Source: a virus
Taxonomy: Duplodnaviria > Caudoviricetes
Direction: 5' to 3' (one strand)
Length of the DNA stretch: 64,000 bases
IMG/VR virus record: IMGVR_UViG_3300021387_001464
Span: 32,001-96,000 of that record
This document shows, one piece after another, positions 5,509-34,463 of the stretch. Position 1 is the stretch's first letter. Each line of letters starts with the position of its first letter. The notes beneath the pieces are model-generated. The model had not been told where the DNA came from and made no database searches. It saw nothing but the letters and a program-made list of their open reading frames with translations. A program made the translations under genes and the position numbers.

Positions 5509-5714
5509 ATGGCGAATAAATTTCTCGGTAATGGACTGAGCCGCACGGCGATGGTGTTTAAGATTGCGACGCTGGCAGGGCATAAGCTAACGGTGCCAGA
5601 ACTGAACCGCATAAAGGATGTCAACCCCCGCACCCTGGAGCGCGTCTATGACTCCGTATTGGGGGGGTAAGTAAAGGCGATGCGCTGTTTGCGCTCAGAC
5701 TGGTATTGAAGTAA
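5509..5714 (+). pseudogene. Small gene truncated at a G7 tract; possibly phase variable
   Basis: G7 at 5661-5667 reads straight into TAA; G8 would extend it as LGGVSKGDALFALRLVLK* to 5714. Confidence 0.55.
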
Positions 5715-26544: not shown

Positions 26545-27039
26545 ATGGCACAAATGACCATGAAAGTGCGTAAGGTGAACGCACAGAACCCCAAGACGCA
26601 GGCCAAAGGCTTTGCCGCCCGCGCCATCACCAATGGTAAGCAGTCGTTTGCAGACATCTGCGAACTGGCAGGACTGAACACCACGATGAACGTGGCTGAG
26701 CTGGAGGCTGCCGGCAAGCTGATTCTGCAGGCCGCTGCCCGTGAGTTGAAGAACGGCAAGATTGTGGACCTGGGTCCCATCGGCGCTATCTACCCTGCCG
26801 TGAGCGGCAAGTGGGCTGAGAAGGCGGAGGACTTGCAGAAGAGCGACCTGACGCTGAAGGTGAACTACCGTCCGAGCGACGAGATTGACGCTGCCATCAA
26901 GGGTGCCAAGCTGGCATGGGCAAGCGCCGAGGACGAGAAGAAGGAACAGGAGAACGGTGGCGAGAACACCACGACTGATCTTGACGAGGGCGGCAACACC
27001 GGCGGCGGCAACACCGGCGGAGGCTCGGACGAAGGCTAA
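26545..27039 (+). CDS. Bacteroidetes HU-domain DNA-binding protein
   Basis: EL.NGKIVDLGPIG.IYP...VNYRPS with an acidic Gly-rich tail. Confidence 0.8.
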   Translation: MAQMTMKVRKVNAQNPKTQAKGFAARAITNGKQSFADICELAGLNTTMNVAELEAAGKLILQAAARELKNGKIVDLGPIGAIYPAVSGKWAEKAEDLQKSDLTLKVNYRPSDEIDAAIKGAKLAWASAEDEKKEQENGGENTTTDLDEGGNTGGGNTGGGSDEG

Positions 27040-27256
27040 TGTCTGATGTCTGATGGCTGATGTCTGATGTAAGACGTCACCACCAAGGGACAAGCGGGGC
27101 TGCGCGGTATGTCCGCAGCGGACCAACATTCCCCACCTTACCATCGTCAGCGACAACGCTACGGCTGACACCCCGAGGGAATGCCGCGAGATGGGTAGCG
27201 CCATCCGCACCCCGCTCTTTTTTTTAGAACGACAACAAGATTTTTTAATAGGCGAT

Positions 27257-28116: not shown

Positions 28117-28503
28117 ATGAACAAATTCCAAAAGGGCGATATGGAAGAAATACAGGATGCTTGCAGCGAGGGCAAGGAATTTTACTTAGACAGCCCTGAT
28201 AGTGACCGTAGGGCGTTCTTCAAGTTTGGAGGAACGACTTATTTCATTACGCGGGATGGCAAGGTGCTCTCATCGCGAGGCGACGGGTATCGCGAGCACG
28301 AGATTGCGCAGTATAATGGCAAGGGTTATCGTCGTGTACGGCTACGTGGCAAGACATTCAAGGTTCACCGCCTGGTGGCCGAGGCATTCGTGCCCAACCC
28401 TGACAACTTGCCCTATGTGCTGCACATTGACGGGGACCGCGAGAATAACATCTGTAGAAACCTGGAGTGGTCCGCAAAGCAGAGCAACCACCATGGGAAG
28501 TGA
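28117..28503 (+). CDS. HNH endonuclease (NUMOD4/HNH_3-like)
   Basis: KVHRLVAEAFVPNPDNLPYVLHIDGDRENN...NLEW. Confidence 0.88.
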   Translation: MNKFQKGDMEEIQDACSEGKEFYLDSPDSDRRAFFKFGGTTYFITRDGKVLSSRGDGYREHEIAQYNGKGYRRVRLRGKTFKVHRLVAEAFVPNPDNLPYVLHIDGDRENNICRNLEWSAKQSNHHGK

Positions 28504-28575
28504 AAAGTGAAAAGTGAAAAGTGAAAAATTTCTTGCTTAGGCAAGCGTACTAAAGAAACGATTAGCTACCGCCGT

Positions 28576-28730
28576 ATGAGTTATGTCGATAAACCCATCA
28601 TCCTTGGCAGGTACAGCCCGAGTCAGAATGGCATAGTGGTAAGCCCACGCGGACCCGCACTCTGCCTTGCAGGGGGGGTAACGGACACGATACGGACAAG
28701 CCGAAAATACTGATAGAACATGAATTGTAA
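28576..28730 (+). pseudogene. TRD-like mini-gene A, frameshifted (OFF) at G7
   Basis: G7 28672-28678; G8 gives MSYVDKPIILGRYSPSQNGIVVSPRGPALCLAGGGNGHDTDKPKILIEHEL*. Confidence 0.75.
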
Positions 28731-28863
28731 AACAATGCTATTGAATCCACAGGGGGGGGTATGCCGCACCATCAAGTCACAGTATTACAAAAGCAGCGTG
28801 GCGAATTTCCTGCTGCAGACCACCAGAGGAGCAACGGCAGTATTGATAGAATATGAACTATAA
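28720..28863 (+). CDS. TRD-like mini-gene B, in frame (G8)
   Basis: MNCKTMLLNPQGGVCRTIKSQYYKSSVANFLLQTTRGATAVLIEYEL*; G8 28752-28759. Confidence 0.75.
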   Translation: MNCKTMLLNPQGGVCRTIKSQYYKSSVANFLLQTTRGATAVLIEYEL

Positions 28864-29078
28864 GCGCATACCGAAGCCAGCGAACCTGCGAGACCATACA
28901 CCGAGTATGGCCGAAGCATTGCCCTATATGATAGAGGCGTGCGGTTTGAGGGGGGGGGTGTTTGTTCGACTATCGCCACTTTGTGTACGACACCATCGAC
29001 GGATGCTACCCGTTCCCAGTGACCACAAGGATTCATGCCAGTAATCAGATTTGGCTATGCAAAGAAATAGAACTTTAA
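28853..29078 (+). pseudogene. TRD-like mini-gene C, OFF at G9
   Basis: G9 28950-28958; G8 gives ...LRGGCLFDYRHFVYDTIDGCYPFPVTTRIHASNQIWLCKEIEL*. Confidence 0.65.
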
Positions 29079-29092
29079 AACAAGATAAAAGA

Positions 29093-30598
29093 ATGATTGC
29101 AAAAGTTTATCCAGATGGGCATCCTGACTTGCAAGGCAAGAAGGACCCGACGCACCCAGTGCGCTATTTCGACATCCGTAAACTCACTCCACGCAAGTGC
29201 TATTCACTGATGGGCGTGCCGCCGCAGCAGATCGACACGCTGATGAAAACCGAAAAGAAACCATATATGGCATGGGTGGGCGTAGATGCCGAACTGGCTG
29301 TGTTCGGACTGGAGCCGAGTGCCACGCGCCGCGAGGTCGATGAAGCATATCGCGAGGCTATCGAGAGTCTAAGAAGACCCACCCCCGACCCCTCCCTGGG
29401 CGAGGGAGGGGAGTGTGAAGACCCCGACAGACCCACCCCCATGCACCTCCCTGCTGAGGGAGGGGAGTGTGAAGAGCCTGAAATGAGCGAAGAGGAGGTG
29501 GCCCTGATGCGTGAGAACTACGATATGAACTACCAGCGCATCATCGCTGCCAGCCAGGAGCAGCGTTACGGTGACGTGCAGATTATTGCCAACTCGTCGC
29601 ATTACAAGCTGGCGGGTAACTCCATCGTCTGCGACGTGCTGATGTATATCTACGAGGAACTGATGTACCCGACGGGCCGCCGACTGCCGCAGGAGCAGAC
29701 CGACCTGTTCGCCCAGCCGCAGTTCCGGCTGACCCGAAACTGGAAGAAAGAGCCGCTGAAGTTGGTAACACTTTGCAGCGGCTACGACTCGCAGGCAATC
29801 GCTATGGATATGCTGCAACAGCGCTATCCGGACTTCCGATGGGAACTGAAGGCATGGAGCGAGTTCGACCCCGAGAGCAGCCGGCCACTGGAAGAGCAGC
29901 CCGCCGTGGTGGCCCATAATCTGCTGTTCCCACAATACAAGGATTTGAACCGTGGCGACATGACCAAGGCCGACTGGAGCGACCTCGCCGATGCAGGTAT
30001 CGACCTGCTGACATATAGTACTCCGTGTCAGTCCATCTCACAGGCTGGCAAGCGAGAGGGTATCAAGAAAGGTAGTGGCACTCGCAGCGCCGTGCTGTGG
30101 AGCACCGAGATGGCGGTAGAGCATCTGCGACCGAAGGTGCTATTGCAGGAGAATGTGCGGGCGCTTATCAACAGCGTGAACATGCCCGACTTCCGCGAGT
30201 GGTGCAGCCTGCTGGAGAGCTACGGCTACGTGAACTTCCTCGCGCCATCGTTCCCGACGGTCTGGGGCACCGACAAGCGCGACAAGAAGACCGTGCCGGG
30301 CATCCTGAACGCCAAGCATTATGGTGTGCCACAGAACCGCGAGCGGGTGTATATGGTCTCCATTCGTGCCGACCTGCTCGGTGGCACGCAGTATGAGTTT
30401 CCCCGTCCTTTCCCGCTCGACAAGTGCATTGCCGATGTGCTGGAGGATAATGTCGATGAGCGTTTCTTCCTGAAGCCCGACTCGGTAATCAAGTTCCTCA
30501 CAGTGAATGAATCGACTGACAGTAACGATATACACTATACGGTAACGGACCACAAACTCTCCGATGAAGAAATCGCCAAGATTCGTAGTGGAAAGTAG
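29093..30598 (+). CDS. Circularly permuted DNA (cytosine-5) methyltransferase lacking a TRD
   Basis: Order IX (RKLTPRKCYSLMG), X (YKLAGNSIV), I (LCSGYDS), IV (TPCQ), VI (ENV), VIII (QNRERVY); the start could also be 29057. Confidence 0.92.
   Translation: MIAKVYPDGHPDLQGKKDPTHPVRYFDIRKLTPRKCYSLMGVPPQQIDTLMKTEKKPYMAWVGVDAELAVFGLEPSATRREVDEAYREAIESLRRPTPDPSLGEGGECEDPDRPTPMHLPAEGGECEEPEMSEEEVALMRENYDMNYQRIIAASQEQRYGDVQIIANSSHYKLAGNSIVCDVLMYIYEELMYPTGRRLPQEQTDLFAQPQFRLTRNWKKEPLKLVTLCSGYDSQAIAMDMLQQRYPDFRWELKAWSEFDPESSRPLEEQPAVVAHNLLFPQYKDLNRGDMTKADWSDLADAGIDLLTYSTPCQSISQAGKREGIKKGSGTRSAVLWSTEMAVEHLRPKVLLQENVRALINSVNMPDFREWCSLLESYGYVNFLAPSFPTVWGTDKRDKKTVPGILNAKHYGVPQNRERVYMVSIRADLLGGTQYEFPRPFPLDKCIADVLEDNVDERFFLKPDSVIKFLTVNESTDSNDIHYTVTDHKLSDEEIAKIRSGK
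29375..29475. repeat. Two REP-like palindromic units (54-bp period) in frame inside the methyltransferase
   Basis: CCCACCCCC..CCTCCCT.....AGGGAGGGGAGTGTGAAGA twice. Confidence 0.8.
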
Positions 30599-30784
30599 TG
30601 CTGTGCTGCGGGGCGTGCGGACAGAGCACGCCCGTGCAGTACGCCGTATCTACGGTGACAGGGGGGGTACTGCCACTTCTCGGACCGCAACTACCTGCCT
30701 GCTACCGATGGCTGCAGCAACACCATCACTGGCGTACAGAAGGACAACCTATTGATAGTTGAATATGAATATAAAGAGTGTTAA
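30564..30784 (+). pseudogene. TRD-like mini-gene D, OFF at G7
   Basis: G7 30661-30667; G8 gives ...DRGGYCHFSDRNYLPATDGCSNTITGVQKDNLLIVEYEYKEC*. Confidence 0.78.
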
Positions 30785-30908
30785 GCCCTACGACGATTAC
30801 AATTCTACCCCCCCCCGACGCGATGGTGTCATTGGCACCGTTACAAGGCAAATTGGAACATCAGCACCAAGGAACGGCTGGAAAATATTGATAGAGTATG
30901 AAATATAA
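30765..30908 (+). CDS. TRD-like mini-gene E, in frame (C9)
   Basis: MNIKSVKPYDDYNSTPPRRDGVIGTVTRQIGTSAPRNGWKILIEYEI*; C9 30808-30816. Confidence 0.75.
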   Translation: MNIKSVKPYDDYNSTPPRRDGVIGTVTRQIGTSAPRNGWKILIEYEI

Positions 30909-31062
30909 CAGGATATTGCAAATAGGCAACCTTACTGAAGGTGCAGGCAGAAACAACCCGCAGCGCAGAAGGCTCTACTCGCCCTATGGCATTGCACCAA
31001 CGGTGTACGGCTATCAAGGCGGTGGCAATTTGCAACCCTTGGTATTGATAGAGTATGAGTAG
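30898..31062 (+). CDS. TRD-like mini-gene F (no tract)
   Basis: MKYNRILQIGNLTEGAGRNNPQRRRLYSPYGIAPTVYGYQGGGNLQPLVLIEYE*. Confidence 0.8.
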   Translation: MKYNRILQIGNLTEGAGRNNPQRRRLYSPYGIAPTVYGYQGGGNLQPLVLIEYE

Positions 31063-31255
31063 CGTTACCCCCATATTGCGGCAAGTCCCTGTTCGGCGAG
31101 TGCGGACGGAATGGGCAAAGGCCATCCGACGAGAGACGGGCACCAACCCGTTTCAAGCCAAACAACTGGAGGAGTTTGTGTCGGACTACATGCCTACCAT
31201 CACCGCCAGTGCAAACATCGAGAACTACATAAAGGTAGAGTATGATATTGATTAA
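31055..31255 (+). CDS. TRD-like mini-gene G (no tract)
   Basis: RVRTEWAKAIRR...MPTITASANIENYIKVEYDID*; N-terminal part resembles D. Confidence 0.75.
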   Translation: MSSVTPILRQVPVRRVRTEWAKAIRRETGTNPFQAKQLEEFVSDYMPTITASANIENYIKVEYDID

Positions 31256-31424
31256 AGAAACGATGCCCAACGAAGACCGCTTCCCTGTCCGTATCTCAGC
31301 AAGTCGTGGCAGGGGGGGGCAAAGACCGTTCCATCAGGTCATTGAACTCGGATCGTCGCAAGCCACAAACACCATCACATCAGTACAAAAAGATAATCTG
31401 GTATGGATAGAGCGAGATATTTAG
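31242..31424 (+). CDS. TRD-like mini-gene H, in frame (G8)
   Basis: ASRGRGG...TNTITSVQKDNLVWIERDI*; G8 31312-31319. Confidence 0.8.
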   Translation: MILIKETMPNEDRFPVRISASRGRGGQRPFHQVIELGSSQATNTITSVQKDNLVWIERDI

Positions 31425-31556
31425 TTGGCGTACATCCGTTCTCTCACGCTTTGGAGTGTGAGGGCAAAATATGGGGGGGGGCAAATCAGTCCTGCCCTGC
31501 GGAGTACGGATTATAAATGTCCTCATTGTGTATTGATTGAGTATGAAGGAGTTTAA
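31403..31556 (+). pseudogene. TRD-like mini-gene I, OFF at G9
   Basis: G9 31473-31481; G8 gives ...KIWGGQISPALRSTDYKCPHCVLIEYEGV*. Confidence 0.78.
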
Positions 31557-31723
31557 GTTTATTGGATGGACACGGCTCGGCAGTGGAAAAGGTGACGTAT
31601 CAAAGTATCATCTGCGCCACTACTGTAACGCCATAACCTCGTTTGCAGGGGGGGGGTATTGGCAAGGATTCGCAGACTGGAATGTATAACACCACACCGT
31701 ATGTATTGATAGAATATGAGTAA
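31543..31723 (+). pseudogene. TRD-like mini-gene J, OFF at G9
   Basis: G9 31648-31656; G8 gives ...CNAITSFAGGGIGKDSQTGMYNTTPYVLIEYE*. Confidence 0.78.
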
Positions 31724-31911
31724 AGAAAAGAAAGTTCGCCGATGCGACAACATTGCAGGGAAGTGGATGCCCGATGGCTCTATCCGCTTCTACCAAATGA
31801 ACGAGCGGAAAGGCGGTGTGCCCGAACTTGTCAACGGCTACGCTGGGGGGGGTCATGCCCTGTATCATAGCAGGCCATGAGCATTATGTTATTGTAGATT
31901 ATGACCTATGA
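31716..31911 (+). pseudogene. TRD-like mini-gene K, OFF at G8
   Basis: G8 31845-31852; G7 gives ...YAGGVMPCIIAGHEHYVIVDYDL*. Confidence 0.7.
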
Positions 31912-32162
31912 GTAACGTCAAGCATTATCCAACCGACGGGCGACCGTTTCTCTCCACCGCTTTGAGGGGGGGGCAGTTCGTGCTGCAAGTTCGACAAGCC
32001 ACGGAGCAGGGCTACATCGAGTGTGTCAGCGGTGGCGTGTTCGATGTGGCTTATCCTTCCAGCCAGCTGCGCCGTGCCCGCGTCAAGGACGACGGCCTCG
32101 TGGCATCAGCGCTCATGTCGGGTGAAACATCACAATGCGTATTCATAGAATATGACGAATAA
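31908..32162 (+). CDS. TRD-like mini-gene L, in frame (G8)
   Basis: QATEQGYIEC..GGVFDVAYPSSQLRRARV...ASALM...VFIEYDE*; G8 31966-31973. Confidence 0.8.
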   Translation: MSNVKHYPTDGRPFLSTALRGGQFVLQVRQATEQGYIECVSGGVFDVAYPSSQLRRARVKDDGLVASALMSGETSQCVFIEYDE

Positions 32163-32292
32163 AAAATATTACGGAGGAATATACTGTTGCTCTTCGCAAT
32201 ATGTGAAGAAAAAGCCTCTATGGGGCGTAGCACGTTGCATTATGGCTGATAAGGCTGACTATCATTTATTAGTAGAGTATGAAGGCTATTAA
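32152..32292 (+). CDS. TRD-like mini-gene M (no tract)
   Basis: MTNKKYYGGIYCCSSQYVKKKPLWGVARCIMADKADYHLLVEYEGY*. Confidence 0.7.
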   Translation: MTNKKYYGGIYCCSSQYVKKKPLWGVARCIMADKADYHLLVEYEGY

Positions 32293-32573
32293 ACTATCGC
32301 GCACCACATCGGCTACGGCCAAGCATTTGAGGGGGGGGGGACTTCCTGCCGGTTCAAGGCTGCGATTCAGCGAGAGCAGTCGAAAGCTCGCTTTCAGACT
32401 GCCGAGCGCAAGCAGGCTCGACGGGTTACTTGTTACCTGTCAATACCACGACAGGCGGCTGCGCCTGTACGCTCAACACCCGCTACGACGGTATGCAACT
32501 GCCAGAGGATATCCTCTCGCTCGCACACTATCCAAAGACAGTCGTGCTTATCGAATATCATCCTGACGGGTAA
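32279..32573 (+). pseudogene. TRD-like mini-gene N, OFF at G10
   Basis: G10 32331-32340; G9 gives ...PVNTTTGGCACTLNTRYDGMQLPEDILSLAHYPKTVVLIEYHPDG*. Confidence 0.72.
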
Positions 32574-32682
32574 GGTTTCGTCCTCGCAAGATGGAGTGGT
32601 CGTATCGCCATACGGCATTGCACCCACCCATTCCGCAGGGCACGGTAACTGTCCAAAGATACTGATAGAGTATAATATATAA
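32557..32682 (+). CDS. TRD-like mini-gene O, lacking its own ATG
   Basis: IILTGKVSSSQDGVVVSPYGIAPTHSAGHGNCPKILIEYNI*; ATC at the position of the usual ATG; frame open back to the G10 tract. Confidence 0.65.
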   Translation: MILTGKVSSSQDGVVVSPYGIAPTHSAGHGNCPKILIEYNI

Positions 32683-32724
32683 CAAATTCAATTTATTTAT
32701 TCACAAAACAAAAAAGTAACGATT

Positions 32725-33297
32725 ATGGCAAACTTTTCAGGCAACATCAATCTACTTGGCTTCAAGGGAGCCAAAGTGTTCACCAACCTCGACGCACAGC
32801 GACCGCAGATCGCCTACGTGTGCATCCCAGTAAACTACAACGACATCCAGCTGTCGCAGGACGGCAGGTACGCCAACGCCCGCGTCTTCATGGCCGAGAC
32901 CAACGACAAGTTCCGGCAAGCCTGCATACAGCGCAAGCAGCAGTCGGGCGACAGCATGGAAGGCTACATGCCACCCTCGCACCAGATGGAAGTGTCGTTC
33001 TCGCCCGAGTTCCGCCAGCGAGCCCTCGAAGCCGCCCGCAAGCGACTCCTGAGCGAGCACCCCGAATGGACGGGCGCCGACCTCGAAGACCCCGAGCGCA
33101 ACACCGACCTGCGCAACGCCATGTACGACGCCGTGCGCTGCCGACTGGGAAGCATGTACTGCCACCAGCGCCAGTCAGCCGCGCCCGCCGCAGCAGCCCC
33201 CGCCACCGCCACCGCCGCACAGGGCGCACAAGGCTGGACTCCGCAGGACGGCCAGCCGTTCCCAGCACAGGAGGAGAACGATGACCTGCCATTTTGA
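32725..33297 (+). CDS. SSB-like protein
   Basis: Ala/Pro/Gln linker and acidic C-terminus ENDDLPF. Confidence 0.65.
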   Translation: MANFSGNINLLGFKGAKVFTNLDAQRPQIAYVCIPVNYNDIQLSQDGRYANARVFMAETNDKFRQACIQRKQQSGDSMEGYMPPSHQMEVSFSPEFRQRALEAARKRLLSEHPEWTGADLEDPERNTDLRNAMYDAVRCRLGSMYCHQRQSAAPAAAAPATATAAQGAQGWTPQDGQPFPAQEENDDLPF

Positions 33298-33370
33298 GGG
33301 CTGAGGGCTGAGGGCTGATGGCTGATGTAGGGGTCGCCTCTTGCGAAGCGCCCCGAAACAAGAAAAGGAG

Positions 33371-33405
33371 TGTCCGCGTAGTTGCGGGCACTCTTTTTAA
33401 TTTTG
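33371..33405 (+). promoter_or_regulatory. Putative late promoter TGTCCG-N21-TAATTTTG
   Basis: Upstream of the first tail-module gene. Confidence 0.7.
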
Positions 33406-33428
33406 TACCCAACAAGACACGAATAGAT

Positions 33429-34463
33429 ATGTTTGGACAGAAATCGACACGACAAATCGACCTGCATCTGCCTACGGGCTGGAACCGCTGCACCACGGAG
33501 GAGCTGGAAGCCATCGCCGCCGCCATCATTCAGGAGCAGCAGCGAGTAGATAGATACCACCCCTTCGACTGGAGTAGGGTGAAGCTGAACGTCGCCCTTT
33601 CCATTAACGATATATCGACATATCGACATAACGATATATCGAAGGACGACGAAAGCACTTGGCTCGTAAAGCGCCCGCAGGACAAGGAGCCGTGGCCTAT
33701 CACCATGGGGCAGCTGGTGGCACTGACCGAGCGGCTGGCGTGGATAGACGACGAGAAGGCGGATAAGACGATCTTCCAGTTCCCGTATAATTCATTGAAC
33801 ATTGAACATGGAACATTGAACATTAAAGTTCAAGGTCCCCCGCCACTGCTCGACGGCTACACCTGGAACGAGTACCGCCTGCTGACCGACTGGATGCAGG
33901 CGTATATGCGGCATAGCAATGCCATAGTGAAAATGAAGAATGAAGAATTAAGAATGAAGAATCAGGAGGCGGCGGCGCAGGCACAGCGGGAGTTCCTGGC
34001 TATCCTGTTCAAACCCTGCGAAAAATCGCAGGGGACAGCAGCTGTGAATGATGGCGGCGGCAGCAAAAAAATGTTCAATGTTCAACGTTCAATGTTCAAT
34101 GTTCAATGTTCAATGTTCAATGCTCAATCTTCAATGTTCAATGTTCAATGTTCAATGTTCAATGATTTCGACCCCGTAAAATGGCAGGTCATCCTCTTCT
34201 GGTGGTCGTCGCTCATGTCGATGCTTGCGAAGAAGTTCCCCAAGGTATTCAAGCAGCAGCCCGTGGGCAAGGGCAAACGCCGCCCGCAGCAGCAGGACAC
34301 CCCGTGGGACTTTTACAACCGCGTGACCGCCACGATACAGAAATACATCGGCGGCCTCTCCGAGCAGGACGTGAACAACGCTACCTATGGCACCATCCTG
34401 CAACAGCTGGAGATGATGGCCGACGAGGCAGCGGAAATGGAAAAACTGAAAATGAAAAAGTAA
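33429..34463 (+). CDS. Hypothetical tail-module protein carrying in-frame heptamer repeats
   Basis: Start at ATG 33429; ~13 TTCAATG units at 34074-34164 translate to MFNVQCS repeats. Confidence 0.7.
   Translation: MFGQKSTRQIDLHLPTGWNRCTTEELEAIAAAIIQEQQRVDRYHPFDWSRVKLNVALSINDISTYRHNDISKDDESTWLVKRPQDKEPWPITMGQLVALTERLAWIDDEKADKTIFQFPYNSLNIEHGTLNIKVQGPPPLLDGYTWNEYRLLTDWMQAYMRHSNAIVKMKNEELRMKNQEAAAQAQREFLAILFKPCEKSQGTAAVNDGGGSKKMFNVQRSMFNVQCSMFNAQSSMFNVQCSMFNDFDPVKWQVILFWWSSLMSMLAKKFPKVFKQQPVGKGKRRPQQQDTPWDFYNRVTATIQKYIGGLSEQDVNNATYGTILQQLEMMADEAAEMEKLKMKK

Follow-up and report, generated by a model that had tools for sequence, protein, structure and literature searches.

Why would a bacteriophage crowd long runs of a single base into a few kilobases of coding sequence, where most of them put the reading frame out of register? 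This question is raised by a 64-kb stretch of phage DNA (the window), consisting of bases 32001-96000 of the 111,678-bp IMG/VR virus record IMGVR_UViG_3300021387_001464, which CheckV rates as complete. Within it lies a gene for a C5-cytosine DNA methyltransferase without a target recognition domain (TRD), flanked by 15 small, overlapping open reading frames (ORFs), here called cassettes A-O, of which 11 contain a homopolymeric tract. A preliminary description of the window, made from its sequence alone, had proposed that these tracts turn individual TRD cassettes on and off. We compared the locus with its relatives and find that it is best explained as a split, multispecific phage methyltransferase whose recognition modules are individually phase-variable; we place the probability of this explanation as a whole at roughly 0.7.

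For comparison, 17 viral, 46 metagenome, and 29 genome loci were gathered (cited by L number where they need to be told apart). Twenty sequencing runs were also found, and four of these were examined as assembled contigs; X1 is the probable source run of the window, and X2 and X3 come from the same biological sample. Since the runs containing the sequence are animal gut, bovine, and sheep gut metagenomes, and the nearest relative of the core methyltransferase gene in genome collections (71% identity) is part of a 104-kb scaffold assigned to the bin of an uncultured rumen Prevotellaceae metagenome-assembled genome (MAG), the host is probably a rumen or gut Bacteroidales bacterium. A blastn search of the region against 50,697 GenBank phage records gave no match.

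Homopolymeric tracts in the cassette array

The cassettes are 41-97 codons long and are all encoded on the + strand, A-C upstream and D-O downstream of the core gene (29093..30598, +). Every cassette was rebuilt with tract lengths of 6-12, and the length that carries the frame through to the conserved tail was scored as ON. As sequenced, four tract-bearing cassettes are ON: B (28720..28863; G8 at 28752-28759), E (30765..30908; C9 at 30808-30816), H (31242..31424; G8 at 31312-31319), and L (31908..32162; G8 at 31966-31973). Cassettes A (28576..28730; G7 at 28672-28678), C (28853..29078; G9 at 28950-28958), D (30564..30784; G7 at 30661-30667), I (31403..31556; G9 at 31473-31481), and J (31543..31723; G9 at 31648-31656) are OFF and would be ON at G8, the ON length also of B, H, and L. 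Cassette K (31716..31911; G8 at 31845-31852) is OFF and would be ON at G7, and N, which includes a leader that it shares with cassette O (32279..32573; G10 at 32331-32340), is OFF with an ON length of 9. Cassettes F (30898..31062), G (31055..31255), and M (32152..32292) are tract-less and each reads to its tail. All of these positions, lengths, ON lengths, and states agree with those of the preliminary description.

The concentration of tracts is far from that expected by chance. The heptamer GGGGGGG has 27 matches on the two strands of the 64-kb window, 26 of them inside the 3.7 kb between 28672 and 32340, while 100 dinucleotide-preserving shuffles gave 3.35 ± 1.99 in the whole window (maximum 9). 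Only one other G or C run of six or more, a G7 at 5661, is present in the window, as had been noticed before. It had also been argued that the tracts are not forced by the protein sequence, since cassette F encodes Gly-Gly-Gly as GGC GGT GGC, and codon usage bears this out. In + strand ORFs of at least 200 aa that lie elsewhere in the window, GGG is used least of the glycine codons (60/812) and GGGGGG spells none of the 47 Gly-Gly pairs; therefore, the tracts are not a by-product of the encoded protein. Their purity and their use of a rare codon would instead point to selection for mutability.

Tract length in related loci

Tract lengths were compared among related genomes, and near-identical genomes were found to differ at the tracts. 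L029 and L030 have 2,882 nt in common with no substitutions and two indels, both of them G8/G7 differences in cassettes. In L028 and L033, which are 99.05% identical over 7.7 kb, eight of 14 gap openings fall at G/C runs and the other six lie in one divergent patch, and the pairs L023/L032 (a segment of 99.2% identity) and L031/L051 together have three indels, each of them within a G tract. Paramuribaculum intestinale DSM 100749 and Muribaculaceae Isolate-036 (L069 and L070) are 98.6% identical over 9.2 kb at a related locus, where 4/4 indels are in tracts (G8/G12, G8/G11, C11/C8, and C12/C9). Since these isolate assemblies differ by 3-4 bases, the differences are not consensus errors.

Eight of the 11 window tracts have orthologues with no more than three mismatches in the 44 flanking nt, and all eight vary in length in at least one orthologue. 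Cassette A has orthologues with G8 (L058, L032) or with interrupted runs (L019, L007) that keep the total length in frame. Cassette B has G7 in L020 and in a strain from the same sample as the window, assembled in X2 and X3; this strain is a few percent diverged from the window, its B tract is one base shorter, and in X3 its D tract is also one base longer. Cassette C has in-frame G8 orthologues in L026 and L036, cassette E has C8 (L050, L024) or C7 (L026), and near-identical orthologues of cassette I have G9, G8, or G7. Cassette K has G7 in L022 and L023 and G8 in L050, orthologues of cassette L range from G6 to G9, and even cassette G, tract-less in the window, has a C8 near its start in L005.

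Tract D could be followed in 16 loci, nine with G7 (among them the window, L021, L022, and L054) and seven with G8 (among them L019 and L050). On a 16-tip maximum-likelihood tree, the G7/G8 distribution requires at least six changes, at least four of them forced by well-supported branches. Since this is no fewer than for shuffled labels (mean 5.4), switching at tract D is saturated relative to sequence divergence.

Across the relatives, 157 tracts could be evaluated; by an automatic classification with at least one known error, 61 were ON and 96 (61%) OFF. G8 was ON in 50/57 cases, G7 was OFF in 69/75, G9 was OFF in 17/22, and G10 was OFF in three. The arrangement thus appears to be one in which eight bases mean ON and drift to seven is commoner than drift to nine. 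At all 11 window tracts, and at the 157 in relatives, a change of one base switches between a full-length and a truncated frame, and among near-identical genomes lengths differ in both directions, as at contingency loci. The preliminary description had attributed such variation to slipped-strand mispairing. Its observable part stands, in that the tracts are hypermutable and their length sets the frame that reaches the tail, while slippage itself would be the presumed cause.

The tracts also belong to the arrays rather than to their surroundings: in 12 related loci, runs of seven or more occur at 2.02/kb in the arrays vs. 0.074/kb in the flanks. The cassette architecture is shared by a more distant clade (L008-L014 and L038-L048), in which a lone tract, variable in length (G7, G8, or G9), sits in one of the cassettes. 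Since that clade is largely tract-less, multiplication of the tracts is derived in the clade of the window.

The methyltransferase core

The core ORF matches Pfam PF00145 (E = 3.9e-36), and the phage genome as a whole holds a single copy of it. It contains the catalytic motifs LCSGYDS, STPCQS, QENV, and QNRER (motifs I, IV, VI, and VIII, respectively), and motifs IX (RKLTPRKCYSLMG) and X (AGNSIV) stand N-terminal of motif I. The order is therefore IX, X, I, IV, VI, VIII and departs from the canonical I-VIII, TRD, IX, X, and no TRD is present between the C-terminus of the core and motif IX. Matches in the PDB were to M.MpeI and M.HhaI. When aligned to M.MpeI (4dkj), residues 162-195 of the core fall on residues 360-393 of the chain, and residues 289-458 fall on residues 113-273. 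Since the alignment order is swapped, the core is circularly permuted and opened exactly at the position of the TRD. On these sequence comparisons, we read it as a permuted, TRD-less C5-cytosine methyltransferase that carries no tract in this genome.

An in-frame fusion between the last upstream cassette and the N-terminus of the core occurs in many homologues, while in the window a stop codon separates cassette C from the core and no cassette is fused to it. An AlphaFold2 (AF2) model of a fused homologue, based on an alignment of 93 sequences, had a predicted local distance difference test (pLDDT) score of 85.5 for the core and 44-55 for the TRD part; an earlier model from a shallow alignment was poor (pLDDT 55.7). 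The top Foldseek matches of the better model were M.MpeI, M.HhaI, and M.HaeIII, which confirms the C5-methyltransferase fold only.

The core gene itself is tract-bearing in some relatives. In L003:6127, L021, L025, L027, L028:1769, and L033:2047, a C7-C10 run lies in the codons for GVPPPQ beside motif IX; C8 is in frame, while C7 (L033) and C10 (L003) are out of frame. This tract would act as a master switch over the whole enzyme. The core of the window has GTGCCGCCGCAG in its place and, since the C tract is absent, is fixed ON.

A separate feature of the core gene is a 53-nt repeat, present in two copies at 29375-29481, that encodes a Pro/Glu/Gly-rich insert between motifs IX and X. The length of this insert is highly variable among homologues, and its contig depth in X1-X3 was 85-314, compared with ~7-65 in neighboring bins.

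The cassettes as predicted recognition modules

All 15 cassettes have T[LIV]-type motifs. Cassettes F, N, H/D, J, I, and O align, in that order, to successive modules of a tandem-TRD methyltransferase from Muribaculaceae (L071 5387-6562), with cassette F on module 56-99 and cassette H on module 164-207 of that protein. In the phage protein family phrog_16427, cassette L matches profile positions 59-110 and motif IX of the core matches the adjacent positions 111-137. By homology, then, the cassettes are predicted to be TRDs, although a Pfam search of eight in-frame cassettes gave no meaningful match and PHROGs matched only cassette L. Several types can be told apart, such as the 'SPxGxAL..GGGNGHDTDKPKILIEHEL' type of cassette A, the 'NTITSVQKDN' type of H, and the 'VRQATEQGY..RRARV' type of L. 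Several TRD modules would thus be served by one catalytic core, as in multispecific C5-methyltransferases, and each cassette would confer one methylation specificity.

The related loci L068-L072, which come from P. intestinale DSM 100749, Muribaculaceae Isolate-036, Lepagella muris, and MAGs, encode a C5-methyltransferase of canonical motif order with tandem TRDs homologous to the cassettes, and this gene is broken by G7-G12 and C7-C12 runs.

Cassettes end in a tail of consensus [VIL][LI][IV]E[YH][ED], e.g., VLIEYE followed by a stop (cassette C has the atypical tail LCKEIEL), and the ATG of the next cassette is embedded in the Tyr-Glu codons of the preceding tail (tATGa). Likewise, the start of cassette D overlaps the last codons of the core in the +1 frame. 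In 31 related loci, an out-of-frame ATG is present in 157/180 cassette tails, at the identical offset in 150; the tails without it use TAC/CAC or a following AAT, as does the last tail of the window, that of cassette O. Since the overlapping ATG is conserved at a fixed offset, we read every cassette as initiated independently and translationally coupled to its neighbor. This conservation supports separate translation of the cassettes, not their binding to the core.

Free TRD peptides might nevertheless act in trans with the core. In a complex prediction with core and cassette H both supplied as alignments, the pair scored 0.57 against 0.00 for the best of three controls; the pass mark is reached by 58/80 solved complexes and 2/110 mismatched pairs, and scores of 0.60 or less came from only seven of the 80 solved complexes and from both passing mismatches. 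The runs agreed in at least 52% of contacts, with a partner pLDDT of about 38-41. Both chain ends of the permuted core would abut the TRD site, and this makes the structural logic of docking attractive.

The N tract and cassette O

The preliminary description had missed a fifteenth cassette, O (32557..32682, +; 'GIAPTHSAGHGNCPKILIEYNI'), which has no ATG of its own, in the window or in any relative, and is reached from the N leader by way of the N tract. From the leader ATG at 32279, G9 leads to N, G8 or G11 leads to O, and G10, the length as sequenced, leads to neither. The O frame is open back to the N tract in 13/13 loci, an event whose chance at a single locus is 0.006-0.046 once the N protein and the codon usage of the phage are taken into account. 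Among 12 non-duplicate loci, seven read N, one reads O (L024, where G7 puts the leader in frame with O), and four read neither. On these frames, the N tract is a three-way selector of N, O, or neither, and not an ON/OFF switch. A claim for a third frame across cassette N was dropped, as this frame is open in some loci and contains 3-4 stops in others.

The figure of up to 2^11 methylation patterns given earlier is accordingly wrong: since the N tract selects among three outcomes, there are 2^10 × 3 nominal states.

Selection, recombination, and other methyltransferase genes

If OFF cassettes were no longer used, they would be expected to decay. Cassette D, whose first 11 codons overlap the core gene and whose remainder is free of overlap, has a ratio of nonsynonymous to synonymous polymorphism (pN/pS) of 0.24 before the tract and 0.20 after it when each part is read in its own frame, and the ratio is the same for G7 and G8 alleles. 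The D tract itself is uninterrupted in 16/16 loci although flanking pS is 0.28-0.58. With purifying selection on both halves, OFF cassettes do not look dead.

Cassettes have also been gained, lost, and reordered at a conserved junction repeat (TATTGATAGARTATGA). In contigs of other strains, 31714 is followed directly by 31907 (K absent; a strain in X3) and 32555 by 32672 (O absent), and a run from another study has joints from 31530 to 30886 (tail of I to start of F) and from 32545 to 31707 (tail of N to start of K). Near-identical cassettes (94-98%) stand in differing orders across contigs. Deletion and reordering at the junction repeat would form a slower, recombinational second layer of change in the repertoire.

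Tracts are not confined to the C5 enzyme, and 13/14 G/C runs of seven or more in the 111.7-kb genome lie inside methyltransferase genes or cassettes. A second methyltransferase gene, outside the window, is of the N6_N4 family (PF01555, E = 3.9e-33; L094:864-1565, +) and has an in-frame G8 at G000:C1:29405, immediately upstream of motif I (VLDPYMGSG), and the sequenced allele is ON. A third, also outside the window (phrog_799; L095:642-1316, -), has a C9 on the + strand, i.e., a coding G9, at G000:C1:106841, and this tract splits the gene into a motif I part (profile positions 185-268) and an NPPY part (274-389), leaving it OFF as sequenced.

The only G run of seven or more outside methyltransferase genes, the G7 at 5661-5667, occupies the last three codons (L-G-G-stop) of a 53-aa ORF at 5509-5670, and a change in its length would extend or alter the C-terminus of that ORF. 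Other simple repeats in the window are short tandem arrays with a 7-nt period, at 34070-34164, 27039-27070, 28498-28527, 33295-33325, 33793-33824, and 33928-33962. The first of these, AATGTTC repeated 13.6 times, lies within an ORF at 33318-34463 and encodes MFNVQCS repeats, and a change of one unit would shift the frame. Such heptamer arrays abound in these samples, as the bin with the AAGTGAA array at 28498 reached a metagenome-contig depth of ~47,000. Directly upstream of the cassette array is a free-standing HNH endonuclease gene (28117-28503; PF13392, E = 3e-07).

Interpretation and alternative explanations

Taken together, these observations fit the following mechanism. The C5-cytosine methyltransferase of the phage would be split into a permuted core, whose chain ends at the TRD site, and 15 TRD mini-genes. 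Slippage during replication would add a base to a run or remove one from it, so that ribosomes would gain or lose the frame leading to the tail. Each recognition module would be switched independently and reversibly, with an ON length that is almost always eight, and the N run would pick one of two modules, or neither, by frame. Within a phage population, methylation specificities would then be present in many combinations, which probably hedges between two kinds of host: those with restriction enzymes that a given methylation blocks and those with methylation-dependent nucleases that it triggers. The evidence leaves evenly balanced a fuller version, in which the TRD mini-proteins dock in trans, each gated by its own homopolymer, one tract picks between two TRDs by frame, all three methyltransferases are tract-controlled, and thousands of methylome states arise with no recombinase, as from a modular, mutationally programmed library of specificities.

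Several observations weigh against this interpretation. In the consensus sequences of relatives 61% of tracts are OFF, and the commonest length, G7, is one base short of ON; this excess of OFF states could reflect low-level expression through transcriptional or ribosomal slippage and not a true OFF. The genome comparisons are of metagenome assemblies of unstated sequencing platform, and the assembled contigs of the runs drop minority tract lengths. The score for the core with cassette H is a weak pass, obtained with a partner that folds poorly in the prediction, and in the model of the fusion the TRD part has low confidence (pLDDT 44-55).

The first of these points leads to the most serious competitor, which is that the tracts act mainly at the level of RNA or the ribosome, slippage yielding a set fraction of each TRD, so that a tract would be an attenuator and not a heritable switch. 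After a -1 slip on a G run, tRNA-Gly re-pairs perfectly with the message. G7 accounts for 75/157 tracts and recurs in orthologues of A, and of D, that have diverged in sequence; purifying selection acts on OFF alleles on both sides of the tract; and a catalytic enzyme needs little TRD. We consider this unlikely as the main mode of action, since OFF lengths lie on both sides of the ON length (69 G7; 17 G9 and three G10) and slippage of both signs would be required. Length changes at the DNA level are moreover seen directly between near-identical genomes, although slippage in expression could still be an extra layer. Variation might also be driven by recombination at the junctions, most cassettes being silent donors, only the cassette fused to the core being used, and tract states being nearly neutral. 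The in-frame fusion of the last upstream cassette in many homologues, the deletions, replacements, and reorderings exactly at junction repeats, the mosaic order, and the 61% of tracts that are OFF would all fit such a scheme. It is quite improbable, however, because silent donors would not be expected to keep an ATG at a fixed offset in 150/180 tails (others use codons that destroy the ATG), to be under purifying selection in both half-frames away from the core, or to keep their tracts pure with G8 as the ON length. The window, too, has no core-fused cassette and no recombinase beside the array, and since all repeats of the array are direct, recombination between them only deletes.

Could the frameshifts be artifacts or signs of decay instead? 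The window derives from a metagenome assembly, homopolymers are error-prone on some platforms, and the independent Logan contig of X1 has one inserted base, relative to the window, somewhere in 30451-32900. That same contig matches A, B, and C exactly (no differences, no gaps) and matches all but one base of 30451-32900, and we take the single difference as a hint of mixed tract lengths. Across ~45 assemblies from many studies, 96/157 tracts are out of frame, which is far above consensus error rates; cultured isolates vary by 3-4 bases per tract (G8/G12, G8/G11, and C11/C8), and no association with frameshifts is seen for the A/T runs of 7-8 in the window. Sequencing or assembly errors in tracts that are truly in frame and invariant would, in addition, leave the recruitment of rare GGG codons unexplained, and such errors are a very improbable account of the locus. 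Even less credible is the idea that the array is the decaying remnant of a multispecific methyltransferase, with the frameshifted cassettes as pseudogenes. Seven of the 11 tract-bearing cassettes of the window are indeed out of frame. Yet pN/pS is ~0.2 on either side of the tract and does not differ between G7 and G8 alleles, stops and indels are absent outside the tracts, tract states revert repeatedly on the tree, and the O frame is open in 13/13 loci against the per-locus odds given above.

Three further candidates were dropped: G-quadruplex formation, as the runs are single and ~100-200 nt apart; a programmed hop between cassettes, as every cassette was taken to have its own ATG; and a diversity-generating retroelement, as there is no reverse transcriptase and no template repeat.

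We therefore favor a split, multispecific methyltransferase with individually phase-variable recognition modules. The preliminary description had called the system a phasevarion; that term means a phase-variable regulon, and nothing here points to gene regulation. For a phage, bet-hedging against restriction is a more plausible purpose than control of a regulon. If the modules do dock in trans, a single lineage could sample methylome states and so balance escape from restriction against attack by methylation-dependent nucleases.

Comparison with known systems

In the literature searched, no description of separately encoded, individually tract-gated TRDs was found. If each cassette works, this would be the first methyltransferase known to us with separate, individually phase-variable recognition-domain genes, and the array would be the densest viral cluster of contingency loci of which we are aware. 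It would also reveal how phages of the gut and rumen deal with the numerous restriction systems found in Bacteroidales hosts and would provide a natural kit of small, interchangeable TRDs for the engineering of cytosine methyltransferases. The tract-bearing homologous loci in cultured Muribaculaceae (P. intestinale DSM 100749 and L. muris) make the switching directly testable.

Among the closest counterparts are the multispecific C5 enzymes that Bacillus phages reportedly encode, M.SPRI, M.Phi3TI, M.Rho11sI, and M.H2I. Like the present system, these are phage-borne, use one core for several TRDs, and presumably protect against several restriction systems. Their TRDs are modules of ~40-50 aa with a T[LIV] motif, contiguous and in tandem within one unswitched polypeptide, whereas here each TRD is an overlapping mini-ORF with its own start and stop, 11/15 carry tracts, and the core is permuted and TRD-less. 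Split or permuted C5 enzymes are also known, namely M.AquI alpha/beta, M.EcoHK31I alpha/beta, and the permuted M.BssHII. They set a precedent for the assembly of such an enzyme from two chains, with the split inside or beside the TRD, and for the motif order IX-X-I-VIII, but each has a single partner and a single specificity, and they are not known to be switched or to draw on a set of alternative TRD subunits.

Bacterial phasevarions, in the Type III mod and Type I hsdS/hsdM systems (Seib et al., 2020; Atack et al., 2020; both as cited in PMC12707154), are similar in that slippage in a simple repeat within a methyltransferase gene turns a specificity ON or OFF randomly and reversibly. According to that account, whole enzymes are switched in these systems, mostly by a single switch each, and control of a regulon is what defines them. 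Here, in contrast, the system is that of a phage and the switches would act on single recognition modules, 11 of them in one array with two more in other methyltransferase genes; a regulatory role for them is not likely. Contingency loci are known from phages as well. Receptor-binding genes of Fletchervirus contain polyG contingency tracts (Sorensen et al., 2021, Cell Rep 35:109214), and a report on contingency loci of T2/T4 mentions an unstudied polyG tract in the methylase gene of phage BPP-1 (bioRxiv 10.1101/2025.10.21.683753). These too are hypermutable homopolymers within coding sequence, and the subpopulations that they generate serve to hedge against host defenses. They concern receptor binding or single genes, however, whereas the present locus is an array of specificity modules with a frame-choosing tract.

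Finally, Type I hsdS shufflons and epigenetic invertons (PMC7672463) generate combinatorial, stochastic variation in specificity within a clonal population by exchanging recognition modules, and in this they resemble the cassette array. They depend on a site-specific invertase acting on inverted repeats, whereas the array has no recombinase and no inverted repeats and would be switched by homopolymer frameshifts. If our interpretation is correct, a frameshift route would thus be added beside invertases and fused tandem TRDs as a means of diversifying DNA-recognition specificity.

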